From a virus, in IMG/VR virus record IMGVR_UViG_3300045808_000037: a DNA stretch of 64,000 bases; one strand, written 5' to 3'. The notes below the pieces were generated by a model. That model was not told where the DNA came from. It saw nothing but the letters and a program-made list of their open reading frames with translations, and made no database searches. Of the stretch, positions 1,101 through 44,346 are shown one piece after another. A program made the translations under genes and the position numbers. Positions within the stretch are counted from its first letter, which is position 1. Every line of letters begins with the position of its first letter.

Positions 1101-1586
1101 ATGTTAAAAGAAATAGGACGGATTGCTTTTCATGGTATGAATTCGAACGATGAAGAAGTCATGAAGGCTTGCTTGGAAAAAATATGGATCATGTCCGTTG
1201 AGAATGTTTCAGAATCAGAAGCCAGTAAAAAAATGAATGACAATCAAAAAGATAAAATCAAGGCAGATGATGATCGTGGGGTATATTTGGTTAAAAAATA
1301 CGGTACATACAAAGGGTACTCAAAATTCAAATTGGCGTTAGATTTCTTTCAAATGAGTAATGACCGCTTTTTTGAAATATATAAGTTTAACTTTGTCCCT
1401 CGAGGTGAATTGTATGAGGTAGCCAGATCATATATAACCGGAAGACAATTGAGTATGGGTTTAAAAGTTGGAGCAAGTATTTCTGCCAATATGTTAAGTC
1501 GTTCCGGAATGGAGATAGATGTTTCTAGTAGTATTGCGAATCAGATCCGTAATTCTGTAAAAAATTCGTTTAGGCTAGGGGGGTAA
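1101..1586 (+). CDS. Phage hypothetical protein
   Basis: 161-aa ORF in operon context; absent from the equivalent slot of prophage 2. Confidence 0.7.
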   Translation: MLKEIGRIAFHGMNSNDEEVMKACLEKIWIMSVENVSESEASKKMNDNQKDKIKADDDRGVYLVKKYGTYKGYSKFKLALDFFQMSNDRFFEIYKFNFVPRGELYEVARSYITGRQLSMGLKVGASISANMLSRSGMEIDVSSSIANQIRNSVKNSFRLGG

Positions 1587-1823
1587 ATGATGGATTTTGC
1601 AGTGTTGGTAGCCGTGGCACTTTTTGCGACAGTATTTGCTAGTGTAATTTTCGGTAAAGAATTAGATGAAAAGGAGAAACAAGCCATTGCCAAAGAAAAG
1701 TTTCAATCAAGTCAACCTATAAATAAAGAGGAGCAAGATTATGGAGGAAGCTATTTTATGGAACAAGATGGCTTTGATCATCGAAGTGATCGTCACAGAG
1801 CAGTTAAAAGAGATCGAAAGTAA
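1587..1823 (+). CDS. Small membrane protein
   Basis: N-terminal TM helix; N-terminal half shared with 42439..42615. Confidence 0.7.
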   Translation: MMDFAVLVAVALFATVFASVIFGKELDEKEKQAIAKEKFQSSQPINKEEQDYGGSYFMEQDGFDHRSDRHRAVKRDRK

Positions 1824-1925
1824 AGCAAAATAAAAAGCATTAAGCAATCGCCCAATGCCCCCAAAATAATGATTTTGTCCCCGCCAAGGTAACTTCATTA
1901 TACCAAACAAAGGGGCGATTGAGCA

Positions 1926-2342
1926 ATGATGCTATTACTAAGAGAAGTTGATTTCTCTCAAACGAGAAAGAATGCACGATATGTTTTGAAGAACTACCGT
2001 CGGTTGGAGCGGATTGCAGGTCGTTCAAAGATCGATGTCCGCTCACCGATTATTACTGATATGCCTAGAACACCTAGTAATGGAAACAAGTCCGAGGATG
2101 CTTTTATTCAAAGATTGGATGCAGAAACAGAAAGAGATGCAATAATCGTGGCACTTATGGCATTGAAACTAACGAGCAGACAGATACTTCATTATAGCTT
2201 CTGCTTACAAGATCAGTATTCTAATCTAAGGATCGCAGATGAGATGGGCTATTCAGTTCGGCAAATTGAGCGAATGAAATCAGATGCATTGGTTGAATTT
2301 GCTGAAAGTTATCGTCGTGGCAAGCTTGTCGCTTATCGATGA
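1926..2342 (+). CDS. arpU: ArpU family late transcriptional activator
   Basis: LKNYRRLERIAGR...SPIITDMP N-terminus, sigma4-like C-terminal HTH (IADEMGYSVRQIERMKSDALVEFAESY), located just before the packaging genes. Confidence 0.9.
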   Translation: MMLLLREVDFSQTRKNARYVLKNYRRLERIAGRSKIDVRSPIITDMPRTPSNGNKSEDAFIQRLDAETERDAIIVALMALKLTSRQILHYSFCLQDQYSNLRIADEMGYSVRQIERMKSDALVEFAESYRRGKLVAYR

Positions 2343-2346
2343 AAAA

Positions 2347-2401
2347 TGGCGGTTTTTTGGCGGTATAATGGCGGTTTAATGACAATAATCCATAGTAAGA
2401 T
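2347..2401 (+). promoter_or_regulatory. Late promoter of prophage 1: three TGGCGGT repeats (11-bp period) and -10 TAAGAT
   Basis: TGGCGGT at 2347, 2358, 2369; TAAGAT at 2396-2401 followed by AGTATT, as in the prophage 2 counterpart; no sigmaA -35. Confidence 0.65.
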
Positions 2402-2424
2402 AGTATTATCAATTATTGTAAATA

Positions 2425-2570
2425 ACAGGGCGCACTCCTTTAAGATACGTTGGCAGACCTCCTTTCTGAAAATTATTCCCAGCGCCCTGTATTTAACTAA
2501 GACGGCGACAAAAAATCTATTATGAATGGAGTTGAACACACTCCTTATCTTCATTCGCTAGCCGTCTTTT
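2425..2570 (+). ncRNA. Two conserved hairpins of the late leader RNA (ACAGGGCGC/GCGCCCTGT and AAGACGGC/GCCGTCTT)
   Basis: Long inverted repeats; homologous copy at ~43584-43722 with pairing preserved. Confidence 0.6.
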
Positions 2571-2575
2571 TTTAT

Positions 2576-2650
2576 GTCACTGTGGCAGAGTGGTATTGCC
2601 TATCTCAAAACGAGGTAAGACTTGTGAGGTTCAAATCCTCACCAGTGACT
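2576..2650 (+). ncRNA. tRNA-like cloverleaf with non-canonical anticodon loop
   Basis: Acceptor GTCACTG/CAGTGAC, D arm GCAG/TTGC with GG, arm TATCT-CAAAACG-AGGTA (no U33), T arm GTGAGG-TTCAAAT-CCTCAC; no encoded CCA. Confidence 0.7.
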
Positions 2651-2699
2651 TTGGGAGTTGGCAATTAGATTACTCACATGATCTTTGGTGCTTCCTACT

Positions 2700-2725
2700 A
2701 AACAGTCCCTAGGGGCTGTTTTTTT
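2700..2725 (+). terminator. Intrinsic terminator ending the late leader
   Basis: AAACAGTCCC-TA-GGGGCTGTTT followed by a T run; compensatory variant at 43868-43891. Confidence 0.8.
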
Positions 2726-2728
2726 CTA

Positions 2729-2757
2729 TTGGGTATCACTTGATTTATTGATATCAT
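2729..2757 (+). promoter_or_regulatory. Putative sigmaA promoter for the cargo gene
   Basis: TTGGGT-17 bp-TATCAT with extended -10 TG. Confidence 0.5.
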
Positions 2758-2769
2758 GTAGGAAAGGGA

Positions 2770-3738
2770 GTGGAGAATGTGAACGATAAAAAATCTGATA
2801 ACTACGTACCTGAGATCAACCTAAAAATTCCAGACCACATAATTAGTTATAGTGAAAGAATCACAAAGATTGTTAATGAACACACTAGATCATTTGAAAA
2901 TCTGAACGAAACTTTTCATAAAATTGAAGAAATGGTTGCATCAAGTCTATCTTCAAAAATGAAGGCGATAATTAATGTGCAAAATCAAGCTATAAATACG
3001 CTAAATTCATTTTCACAAAATGTTTCAGAAAATTTAAATTTAATCAATATGAATCAAAAAATTTCTGAGATTATGTCAGCTGTAAATTGGAAAGGAATAT
3101 TAGATAAAGCAAATCGGGCCAAAGAAATTAATGCGGAGGCAGATCCCGAAATTTTGACAAAATTAGCTGATTTGGGGTGGTCAGCACCTACATGTATTTA
3201 TATACCTTTACATTTGTATAGTCTAAAACATGAAGAAAATCTTAACAAACATATGATTCGATTATACTGTAGAAATAATTTCGGGTATTTAATTGAAACT
3301 TTAAACACTATATCGGATTCACTAGATGATGATTTTAAGATAATAGTATTTCAAATGATTGATGTTTTGAACGATGATTGGAAAAAATACAAACTTTGTA
3401 CAGCAAATTTATTTATGATTTTAGAACATTTGTCAGTTATGAAAGTACACCCAGAATTGAAAACTAAACGTCTTCTTAATAAACCAATGATAGAAGAGTT
3501 GATGGCAGATAATGGGGAAGGAGACATATATTCTGCTGCTAAAGGTGAATGTAAAAAAGCAATAAAAGCATATTATGACCACCAAAATTTTGAGGAAATT
3601 ACCGAGCTTAAGTTTGGCAGACACTCTTTTTTACATGGAAGATATTCACCGGAAAAATTATCATTTCTAGACTTTTTAAAATTAGTAAATTGTATAGGTT
3701 TTTATTTTGAAGTTACAGAAGAACTAGAAATAGTATGA
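2770..3738 (+). CDS. Moron protein with C-terminal HEPN-like RxxxxH motif (putative RNase/defence toxin)
   Basis: FGRHSFLHG motif followed by a terminal helix; AT-rich; own putative promoter; inserted before terS. Confidence 0.6.
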   Translation: MENVNDKKSDNYVPEINLKIPDHIISYSERITKIVNEHTRSFENLNETFHKIEEMVASSLSSKMKAIINVQNQAINTLNSFSQNVSENLNLINMNQKISEIMSAVNWKGILDKANRAKEINAEADPEILTKLADLGWSAPTCIYIPLHLYSLKHEENLNKHMIRLYCRNNFGYLIETLNTISDSLDDDFKIIVFQMIDVLNDDWKKYKLCTANLFMILEHLSVMKVHPELKTKRLLNKPMIEELMADNGEGDIYSAAKGECKKAIKAYYDHQNFEEITELKFGRHSFLHGRYSPEKLSFLDFLKLVNCIGFYFEVTEELEIV

Positions 3739-3762
3739 CAAATACAGAAAAAGGTGAGAGTA

Positions 3763-4215
3763 GTGAAACTAACTGAAAAGCAACGTAGATTTGCGGATGA
3801 GTACATTATCAGCGGTAATGCTACTCAAGCCGCTATTTCTGCTGGGTACAGCAAACGAACTGCTAAGTCTGTAGGTAGTGAGAACCTGACAAAACCTGAC
3901 ATTAGACAATATATAGACGAAAGACTTGAACAGCTGCAATCAGAAAAAATCGCTAATCAAGAAGAGGTCCTGGAATATTTGAGTAAGGTTATGCGAGGAG
4001 AAGAAACAGATCAAACGGTAGTCTTTCAAGGATCTGAATACGGTTCAACGATAGAAGATGTGCAAGTAGCTAATAAAGATCGTATAAGAGCAGCTGAACT
4101 CCTTGGCAAAAGGTATAGCCTATGGACTGATAAAGTGGAACTAGATGGCAATATGGATCTGAAAGTGGTGGTTGATTATGGCGATGGCGAAAACGAAGCG
4201 CCAAATGATAGTTAA
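3763..4215 (+). CDS. terS: Terminase small subunit
   Basis: KLTEKQRRFADEYIISGNATQAAISAGYS, DRIRAAELLGKRY; AAAGGTGA SD favours GTG at 3763. Confidence 0.92.
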   Translation: MKLTEKQRRFADEYIISGNATQAAISAGYSKRTAKSVGSENLTKPDIRQYIDERLEQLQSEKIANQEEVLEYLSKVMRGEETDQTVVFQGSEYGSTIEDVQVANKDRIRAAELLGKRYSLWTDKVELDGNMDLKVVVDYGDGENEAPNDS

Positions 4216-5473
4216 GGTACAATTTAACCGAAATTTCCAAACATACAATACCACTAGGAAAAGATATCGATTAGCTAAAGGATCAGCTGGTTCTGGTAAA
4301 TCAGTAAATACTGCGCAAGACTTTATCATAAAACTTGGAGATCCGAAGTATAAAGGAGCAAATCTTCTTTGTGTTCGTAAAGTCGCCGAGTCAAATAAAG
4401 ATAGTACGTATGCTGAATTGAAGTCTGCTATCTATAAGATTTACGGATCTGACTACCACAAATATTGGTCCATTAAATCATCGCCTATGATGCTCGAATC
4501 AAAGATTACTGGCAATCAAGTGATATTTCGTGGGATGAAAGATGACGGACAGCGAGAAAAAGTAAAATCTATTACTTTTGACCGTGGTAAACTCACATGG
4601 ATATGGATCGAGGAAGCGACAGAACTTTATGAAGCCGATGTAGATATTCTCGATGACCGTTTACGTGGTAATTTGGATTTTAACCCATATCTTTACTATC
4701 AAATGACATTTACTTTTAACCCGGTATCAGCTACTCACTGGATCAAGTCAAAGTACTTTGATGTAACGCATCCAGACATTTTTACTCATCAATCAACATA
4801 TCTACAGAATCGATTCATTGATGAAGCCTATCACCGGCGGATGATGATGCGAAAAGAGCGTGATCCTGATGGATATCAAATCTATGGACTCGGCGAATGG
4901 GGTGAGTCTGGTGGACTTATCCTTACTAATTATATTGTAGAAAACTTTAACACAGACCCAGAACGTTTTGACTACATGGTTAACGCTCAAGACTTCGGAT
5001 TCAATCATGCCAATGCTATTGGTGAAATTGGATTTAAAGATGGCGAGCTTTTTTTGTGCCGTGAAATCTATGAGTTCGAAAAAGATACGAGTGAGCTTAT
5101 TGCAATCGCTAATGAAAAAAGAATCAATAAAAAGCTGGTTATGTGGTGTGATTCTGCCGAACCGGATCGAATTAAAATGTGGCGCAAAGCTGGCTATCAT
5201 GCTGAACCTGTTGTAAAAGAACCCGGAAGTGTGTCAGCACAGATCGATTATTTGAAGCAGATGCGCATCCATATCCATCCAAGTTGTACAAATACAATCA
5301 AAGAAATACAACAATGGAAGTGGAGAAAGGACGAGAAATCAAATACTTTTACGGACGATCCGGTGAATTTCTTTGATGATGCAATGGCGATGTTACGATA
5401 CTCTATTGAGCTGGAAAGACGTAAAGGTCAGCAAGCCAAGAAAAGACGCACAAATAGAAAAACAGCATTTTAG
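4172..5473 (+). CDS. terL: PBSX-family terminase large subunit
   Basis: Walker A GSAGSGKS, Walker B WIEEA, TFNP, C-terminal nuclease DFG...DDAMAMLRY. Confidence 0.93.
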   Translation: MIMAMAKTKRQMIVKVQFNRNFQTYNTTRKRYRLAKGSAGSGKSVNTAQDFIIKLGDPKYKGANLLCVRKVAESNKDSTYAELKSAIYKIYGSDYHKYWSIKSSPMMLESKITGNQVIFRGMKDDGQREKVKSITFDRGKLTWIWIEEATELYEADVDILDDRLRGNLDFNPYLYYQMTFTFNPVSATHWIKSKYFDVTHPDIFTHQSTYLQNRFIDEAYHRRMMMRKERDPDGYQIYGLGEWGESGGLILTNYIVENFNTDPERFDYMVNAQDFGFNHANAIGEIGFKDGELFLCREIYEFEKDTSELIAIANEKRINKKLVMWCDSAEPDRIKMWRKAGYHAEPVVKEPGSVSAQIDYLKQMRIHIHPSCTNTIKEIQQWKWRKDEKSNTFTDDPVNFFDDAMAMLRYSIELERRKGQQAKKRRTNRKTAF

Positions 5474-43556: not shown

Positions 43557-43583
43557 AGTATTGTAGAAATTTTTAAATATCAG

Positions 43584-43722
43584 GGCGCACTCCTTTATGA
43601 TTCGTTGGCAGACCTACTTTCGTGATTACCTTTCAGCGCCCTGTATTTAATTAAGACGGCACCCAAAAATTTAAAATGAATGGAGTTGAACACACTCCTT
43701 ATCTTCATTCGCTAGCCGTCTT
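43584..43722 (+). ncRNA. Two conserved hairpins of the late leader RNA (copy 2)
   Basis: CAGGGCGC/GCGCCCTG and AAGACGGC/GCCGTCTT stems homologous to 2425-2570. Confidence 0.6.
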
Positions 43723-43730
43723 AATTTTAT

Positions 43731-43816
43731 GTCACTGTGGCAGACCGGGGAAATGCAGAGGCTATGCATAGAATGTGTACGACTCGTAAGTGAGGTTCAA
43801 GTCCTCACCAGTGGCT
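43731..43816 (+). ncRNA. tRNA-like cloverleaf with extended anticodon arm
   Basis: GTCACTG/CAGTGGC acceptor, GCAG..GG..TGC D arm, GTGAGG-TTCAAGT-CCTCAC T arm; central arm GAGGCTATGCAT-AGA-ATGTGTACGACTC. Confidence 0.65.
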
Positions 43817-43867
43817 TTGGGAGTTGTCGATTAGATTACTCACATGATCTTTGGTACTTCCTACTTT

Positions 43868-43891
43868 GCAGTCCCTCGGGGCTGCTTTTTT
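43868..43891 (+). terminator. Intrinsic terminator ending the late leader (copy 2)
   Basis: GCAGTCCC-TC-GGGGCTGC followed by a T run. Confidence 0.8.
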
Positions 43892-43894
43892 ACA

Positions 43895-43923
43895 TTGCTT
43901 TCGTTCTAAATAACAATTATTAT
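43895..43923 (+). promoter_or_regulatory. Putative sigmaA promoter for the cargo gene
   Basis: TTGCTT-17 bp-TATTAT. Confidence 0.55.
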
Positions 43924-43947
43924 TGTTTTGAATGGAGGGTGATAAGC

Positions 43948-44346
43948 ATGAATTACGAAGAGTTGAAAGAATATGTAGGTAGTCAACTACCTGAAACATC
44001 TAAGCTGACGATAATGAAGCGCGTTATAGATGATATCGCAAGTGAATTCTTTAATTTAAAGAATAAATTGACTGAGGATCTTAACATCGATGAAAATCAG
44101 AACAATATCAACGTAGCGAAAACTGGGAACCGTAGAGGAACTGTACTCAGCATCGGAGACCGCCAAATAAAAGTCGATTATGATGGAGATTCACATATCG
44201 AGGTTATAGTGTATGAGCCGGGAGTTTTAGATGCAACAAAGATTGACGATATCATTTATAGAGATGGAAAAGCCGTCTATGAGGGTAATGGCGAACTATT
44301 TGATTTAAAATCGATAGAAAGCTATCTTGATTGGTTCAAAAAATAA
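43948..44346 (+). CDS. Moron hypothetical protein (132 aa)
   Basis: GGAGGGTG SD before ATG at 43948; own promoter and terminator. Confidence 0.75.
   Translation: MNYEELKEYVGSQLPETSKLTIMKRVIDDIASEFFNLKNKLTEDLNIDENQNNINVAKTGNRRGTVLSIGDRQIKVDYDGDSHIEVIVYEPGVLDATKIDDIIYRDGKAVYEGNGELFDLKSIESYLDWFKK

Follow-up and report, generated by a model that had tools for sequence, protein, structure and literature searches.

tRNA mimicry in bacteria is represented by Y RNAs and tmRNA and in eukaryotes by tRNA-like processing modules. Among the Y RNAs, the YrlA-type bacterial and phage RNAs (PMC4201824; Rfam RF02553) are non-decoding molecules with tRNA-like D and T arms which serve as substrates of RNase P, the CCA-adding enzyme and modification enzymes, but they are circularly permuted with the ends on the anticodon side and an acceptor stem closed by a loop, and are encoded beside a Ro60 gene. 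In the MALAT1 mascRNA and in the tRNA-like/pre-miRNA units of murine gammaherpesvirus 68, a tRNA-shaped element inside a longer transcript is cut by RNase P and/or RNase Z to define the ends of the neighbouring RNAs. Equally, an engineered tRNA scaffold, in which the acceptor, D and T arms are kept while the anticodon stem-loop is turned into an insertion site, is processed by the bacterial cell and protected from nucleases (PMC3753655). A 13-bp coaxial acceptor/T helix is found in bacterial tRNA-Sec, split 8/5 and combined with a UCA anticodon and a long variable arm, while the 580- to 800-nt ROOL and GOLLD RNAs occupy prophage and phage non-coding regions next to tRNA islands (PMC5737381; 10.1101/2024.12.08.627333).

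Here we analysed two loci in a stretch of 64,000 nucleotides of viral DNA (IMG/VR record IMGVR_UViG_3300045808_000037; hereafter the window), which holds two tandem Enterococcus-type prophages. Both loci belong to a large, apparently undescribed family of phage RNAs that keep the upper half of a leucine-type tRNA but carry interchangeable folded inserts where the anticodon arm should be; they are probably cut out like tRNAs, which is inferred from sequence alone, yet cannot decode. In contrast to YrlA, the ends lie at the acceptor stem, no Ro60-like gene is present among the ten flanking proteins, which are an activator, terminases and unknowns, and RF02553 gives no hit. Compared with the man-made scaffold with its standard 12-bp helix, the family is natural, has a 13-bp helix and carries inserts without an assigned role. 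Compared with the eukaryotic and animal-virus modules, for which cleavage is shown, cleavage is inferred here and the tRNA-like piece itself is the most conserved part. Compared with tRNA-Sec, the 13 bp are split 7/6 and there is no anticodon. No ROOL or GOLLD RNA was detected in the window by Rfam and no tmRNA by ARAGORN, and with 74–140 nt the mimic is smaller than ROOL and GOLLD and has a tRNA fold. Rfam 15 contains no model of the family and literature searches on tRNA-like elements in Enterococcus phages and in late leaders found no description. In GenBank, only Enterococcus phage EG-TP1 and an unverified fecal contig match the leader, while a few Enterococcus phages match parts of other family members, with none annotated there.

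Two tRNA-shaped elements in conserved phage leaders

The first element (2576–2650, plus strand) has a cloverleaf as its minimum-energy structure (−27.5 kcal/mol, z −3.28, none of 200 shuffles as stable), composed of a 7-bp acceptor stem GTCACTG/CAGTGAC (2576–2582 with 2643–2649), a D arm (2584–2600, stem 2584–2588/2596–2600) with GG in the loop, a central 6-bp stem TATCTC/GAGGTA (2601–2606/2612–2617) capped by 5 nt, a 6-nt connector, a 6-bp T stem GTGAGG/CCTCAC (2624–2629/2637–2642; T arm 2624–2642) with the loop TTCAAAT and a discriminator U at 2650. Read as a 7-nt loop, the central loop CAAAACG has A at position 33 and C at position 37, but its C and G can also pair to leave the 5-nt loop. 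The second element (43731–43816, plus strand) has the same acceptor stem (43731–43737/43809–43815) with a U2-G71 pair, a D arm (43740–43756) also with GG in the loop, a central hairpin (43758–43785), the same 6-bp T stem within the T arm 43790–43808, the loop TTCAAGT and a discriminator U at 43816. On its own, its fold is not significant (z −1.16). The central arm consists of 3+7 bp with a 2x3 internal loop and a triloop; this fold has −24.0 kcal/mol against an optimum of −24.9, is the optimum in the relatives L016 and L068 and is supported by one compensatory TA to CG change.

The observation of the earlier note, two copies with retained acceptor stem, D-loop GG, TTCRA T-loop and an atypical 6-bp T stem making a 13-bp acceptor-T helix, with a CAAAACG loop lacking U33 in one copy and an extended hairpin in place of the anticodon arm in the other, is confirmed, except that the hairpin of copy 2 has 10 bp and not about 12 bp. 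ARAGORN calls copy 1 tRNA-Phe(aaa) and does not call copy 2, whereas the Rfam tRNA model (RF00005, gathering threshold 29 bits) hits neither copy even at E<=10, although canonical tRNAs in related loci score 48–57 bits. No other Rfam family was found at gathering or at E<=10 on either copy, weak snoRNA and miRNA lines being chance. The elbow nucleotides of a decoding tRNA are present in both copies, but a 7-nt anticodon loop with U33 and a purine at 37 and the 7-bp plus 5-bp stack of 12 bp are not. A covariance model of the family (R1) scores the two copies at 51.8 and 59.2 bits (E 2e-10 and 3e-12 in 459 kb, E-values of this model being rough), but the opposite strand only at 13.8 bits, and G-U pairs occur only on the plus strand.

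Each copy is located in the middle of a conserved unit of about 300 nt that consists of a promoter-like site, two long hairpins, the tRNA-like slot, a 3′ hairpin and an intrinsic terminator and is 83% identical between the two prophages, while the neighbouring DNA is not alike. In the first leader, a promoter-like site (2379–2406; ATGACA, 16 nt, TAGTAT), identified by a consensus scan only, lies downstream of the late activator gene (1926–2342; phrog_248 transcriptional activator) and is followed by a 5′ module of hairpin 1 (2426–2489) and hairpin 2 (2499–2568), the tRNA-like slot, a 3′ module (2651–2699) and an intrinsic terminator (stem 2700–2721 and T run, to 2728), with terminator stems varying by compensatory changes. 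In the second leader, the 5′ module spans 43581–43722 (hairpin 1, 43581–43643; hairpin 2, 43653–43722), and the 3′ module and intrinsic terminator (stem 43868–43885 and T run) span 43817–43891; these modules are also on the plus strand. The activator gene upstream of the second leader is assigned to phrog_1558. Downstream of both leaders an unknown ORF is followed by TerS and TerL, whereby the terminases are of different types in the two prophages (Terminase_3 against Terminase_6N). The 322-aa ORF directly behind leader 1 (2770–3738) has no Pfam or PHROG match.

A 19-nt word from hairpin 2 found 36 viral contigs, which together with two GenBank records and the window make 40 leaders, with flanking modules about 90% conserved but with a different slot content. 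According to ARAGORN, the slot holds canonical tRNA-Pro(UGG) 14 times (three followed by a second, odd tRNA), tRNA-Lys(UUU) 11 times, a tRNA-Pro with a one-base loss in the anticodon loop once (leader L014) and the GTCACTG-type mimic 14 times. The tRNA-Pro and tRNA-Lys genes in the slots of the sibling leaders L002–L037 (for example, L002:150–225 and L003:5446–5521) share one acceptor stem (CAGGAAT/ATTCCTG) and the same D and T arms and differ almost only in the anticodon arm, so that identity appears to have been switched by swapping that arm. The slot is therefore a place where real tRNAs are expressed, and those must be matured by the host. That homologs are mostly intact tRNAs had been named beforehand as a finding that would speak against the mimic, and with 25 of the 40 closest leaders this is the case on the surface only, as those tRNAs have another acceptor stem and a 5-bp T stem and are not hit by R1; they are neighbours in a shared slot and not homologs.

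A family with a constant frame and exchangeable inserts

Diverged leaders in other Enterococcaceae genomes carry the same frame, and two pattern scans of viral contigs brought 178 copies of 74–140 nt, 92 of them distinct, although many copies come from related phages so that the counts are not independent. The T stem is 6 bp in 90 of 92 variants, with several compensatory types. D-loop type and T-arm type go together and define four frames, with both window copies belonging to frame IV, copy 1 with a short and copy 2 with a longer insert. Between the D arm and the T arm there are one to three hairpins, falling into at least 28 unrelated insert classes of 24–88 nt, three of which occur on more than one frame. 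In the 92 variants, 99.1% of cells are paired (99% for the 13-bp helix) and 5 of 6 T-stem pairs change on both sides, whereas the acceptor stem could not vary in this set because the search pattern fixed it.

This bias was removed with the covariance model R1, which finds the family in 31 of 134 Enterococcaceae species genomes with 1–6 copies each and in 8 genomes of other Lactobacillales families, the range being stated as family and order of the E. casseliflavus reference genome. In the latter genomes, the acceptor stems differ but remain fully paired (for example, GUCACCG/CGGUGAC, GUCGUAG/CUACGAC and AUACUCG/CGAGUAU), and ARAGORN calls none of these a tRNA. In the resulting alignment of 31 sequences, which is fitted to the model and includes two canonical tRNA-Leu genes, 98.6% of cells pair and 12 of 16 pairs change on both sides, 6 of 7 in the acceptor, 4 of 6 in the T stem and 2 of 3 in the D stem. 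None of 500 shuffles reached the paired share or the covariation score, one reached the count of double-changed pairs, and slid controls pair only 34–43%. The sixth T-stem pair, next to the acceptor, is G-C in 29 rows and G-U in 2. An order-wide scan with a 14-nt acceptor/D pattern gave GCAGA-type hits outside Enterococcaceae only at the level of the reversed-pattern control.

Canonical class II tRNA-Leu is among the closest known systems, sharing with the family the 7-bp acceptor stem, U8-G9, a D arm of the GGCGGAA...GACGC type in most family members, G18-G19, a T-loop of the TTCRA type, the absence of an encoded CCA and U74. It differs in that the family has a 6-bp T stem with one extra nucleotide before the acceptor 3′ strand, lacks a 7-nt anticodon loop and has the anticodon and variable arms replaced by the inserts. 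R1 hits the three host tRNA-Leu genes of E. casseliflavus at 27–32 bits and none of the 14 other host tRNAs tested, the next best, His, scoring 14 bits. The D-arm pattern finds only tRNA-Leu genes, the mimic itself and two weaker sites with 1–2 mismatches (one checked, no tRNA) in that genome, and one insert class still begins like the anticodon stem of tRNA-Leu(UAG). The D-arm signature TGGCGGAAnnGGnAGACGC is matched by frames I–III with 13–15 of 19 positions against host Leu, next best His at 8, while frame IV of the window, the most diverged, has GCAG in place of GCGG in the D stem and a shorter or altered loop and does not match host tRNA-Leu best. Leucine ancestry of the two window copies therefore rests on family membership; the copies are linked to the family by the identical acceptor stem, the 6-bp T stem and the R1 scores. 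Discriminator A73, a LeuRS identity element, is absent in both copies; in the family, the discriminator is U in 140, A in 32 and G in 6 of 178 copies.

Inferred processing and competing readings

With moderate confidence, we consider the two loci to encode non-decoding, tRNA-shaped RNAs of one phage-borne family descending from a class II, leucine-type tRNA. In its sequence features, the family keeps what tRNA-processing enzymes read, namely a 7-bp acceptor stem stacked on a T arm (here 6 bp), the D-loop/T-loop elbow, a U after the discriminator and no encoded CCA. The sequence itself shows the conserved frame, the promoter and terminator motifs, the absence of an encoded CCA in all copies, a U after the discriminator in 177 of 178 copies as in 14 of 15 CCA-less host tRNA genes, the position of family members in tRNA islands and tandem arrays and the strand-specific pairing, while transcription, cleavage, CCA addition, accumulation and exclusion from translation are deduced. 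In this view, the late promoter behind the ArpU-like activator gene would make a leader of about 315 nt ending at the intrinsic terminator, host RNase P would cut before G2576 or G43731 and RNase Z after U2650 or U43816, as the canonical tRNA-Pro or tRNA-Lys in the same slot of sibling phages must be matured, and upon CCA addition a stable L-shaped RNA of 75–86 nt would accumulate. In Bacillota, RNase Z indeed cuts CCA-less precursors after the discriminator, with RNase P acting first when 5′ extensions are long, before CCA is added (PMC1874595; PMC8549757). The RNA would stay out of translation as it has no 7-nt anticodon loop with U33 and its 13-bp helix is of the kind that keeps tRNA-Sec away from EF-Tu, and charging by LeuRS is unlikely for the window copies as the discriminator is U. 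The tRNA frame would thus act as a natural processing-and-stability scaffold displaying a swappable insert, for which no target is known. However, the 13-bp helix is non-standard for RNase P and RNase Z and could shift or weaken cleavage. Equally, no RNA ends, CCA addition or accumulation were observed: 18 ant metatranscriptome runs cover the prophage region 1500–4500 almost completely (word share 0.81–0.98), but only as assembled contigs whose pieces end at 2506–2589, where the two leader copies stop being identical, which is an assembly effect, so that neither ends, strand nor level can be read.

The interpretation of the earlier note is partly supported. That the elements are tRNA mimics and that neither copy can decode holds, and cleavage by RNase P and RNase Z is consistent with the sequence features and the slot shared with real tRNAs, whereas the suggestion that the tRNA shape serves to release the flanking hairpins is weakened and the suggested decoy for tRNA-targeting defence nucleases or tRNA-sensing factors is neither supported nor excluded. 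Pure punctuation, with the excised piece a by-product of separating the 5′ hairpins from the 3′ hairpin-terminator RNA or the late mRNA, shares the processing features of the favoured view, and in the leader type of the window the flanking modules are in fact more conserved in sequence than the slot. Across the family, however, the flanks (hairpin 2, a small-ORF insertion, a bare promoter, ROOL or other modules) differ widely while the frame is constant, and inserts of up to 88 nt fold into conserved hairpins with compensatory changes across frames, which a cleavage signal does not need. We therefore take the excised RNA, and not the flanks, to be the functional product and consider punctuation unlikely. 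A decoy or sponge competing with host tRNAs, with varied inserts tracking different host factors, is attractive as the slot alternates with tRNA-Lys(UUU), the classic target of anticodon nucleases of which phages carry resistant copies, and insert diversity is what an arms race would give. Yet anticodon nucleases read the anticodon loop, the very part that is missing, and no defence gene was tied to the element here, so that this reading also remains doubtful.

Decay of tRNA pseudogenes is very unlikely. Although sibling leaders hold intact tRNAs and, in L014, a broken one, these are of a different lineage, and the helices of the mimic are kept by compensatory changes in 92+ variants and across families of Lactobacillales, with the spread in Enterococcaceae genomes given above. 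Very unlikely as well is a DNA-level element (pac/cos, recombination or attachment site) or a coding function. The deposited genome of Enterococcus phage EG-TP1 (PQ571292; record start at L001:3328) ends inside the leader just before the terminator hairpin, which may be an arbitrary cut or a real end, and ORF 43729–44346 reads through copy 2. However, the different terminases behind the same leader speak against a packaging site, pairing uses G-U and is strand-specific, the same frame stops after 14 codons in copy 1 and family lengths differ by non-multiples of three. An intron in tRNA-Leu was equally dismissed, as the inserts are far too small for group I introns and the flanks do not restore an anticodon stem.

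A widespread phage family that keeps a tRNA frame and swaps the decoding arm for dozens of different folded inserts has not been described in Rfam 15 or in the papers searched. If the RNAs are processed and stable, they are the natural counterpart of the engineered tRNA scaffold, which would point to an RNA-based layer of phage-host interaction in enterococci. More speculatively, and considered unlikely on present evidence although not excluded, phages of Enterococcus and other Lactobacillales might maintain a scaffold system in which the leucine-tRNA-derived 7/6 frame hijacks host RNase P, RNase Z and the CCA enzyme to produce stable RNAs whose exchangeable inserts are a library of aptamer-like modules binding or diverting host factors such as defence nucleases or translation and tRNA-sensing proteins, possibly together with ROOL-type RNAs in the same islands. 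In L132 only, a 155-kb Enterococcus phage contig, a ROOL RNA (RF03087, 265 bits; 1140–1726) ends 14 nt before a family member (1740–1852), with a canonical tRNA at 769–840, which makes the mimic a concrete, small candidate partner of ROOL-type RNAs.

Neighbouring and similar elements

The finding also explains why tRNA finders give odd calls (Phe-AAA, Val-AAC, Asn-GUU) in these prophages. About 130 nt downstream of family members, a well-scoring tRNA (48–53 bits on RF00005) with the anticodon loop UGAAUAG, with G at position 33 and the nominal anticodon AAU, is located in the viral loci L053 (1783–1855), L055 (1230–1302, minus strand), L058 (5323–5395, minus strand) and L105 (13964–14036). Another odd tRNA-like family, with acceptor TGACGTG and D arm GCATCATGGTGATGC, occurs in about ten viral loci and is called tRNA-SeC(tca) or tRNA-Stop(tta) by ARAGORN. 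Downstream of the mimic in L059, L075, L085, L110, L115, L046 and L048, a recurrent structured module, closed by GCAACCGAGG ... GTGTAGGTTGC and with a variable interior, is followed by a conserved terminator and has no Rfam hit. Upstream of the mimic in L056, L075 and L115, a 27-codon hydrophobic ORF (MIPLIISIFALCLNVYMIGFKNGQNKK) is inserted between hairpin 2 and the mimic, while Rfam rli28 (99–134 bits) and RatA (49 bits) hits lie downstream in other leaders (L045:1000–1182 and L051:1031–1210); these look like type I toxin-antitoxin-like morons.
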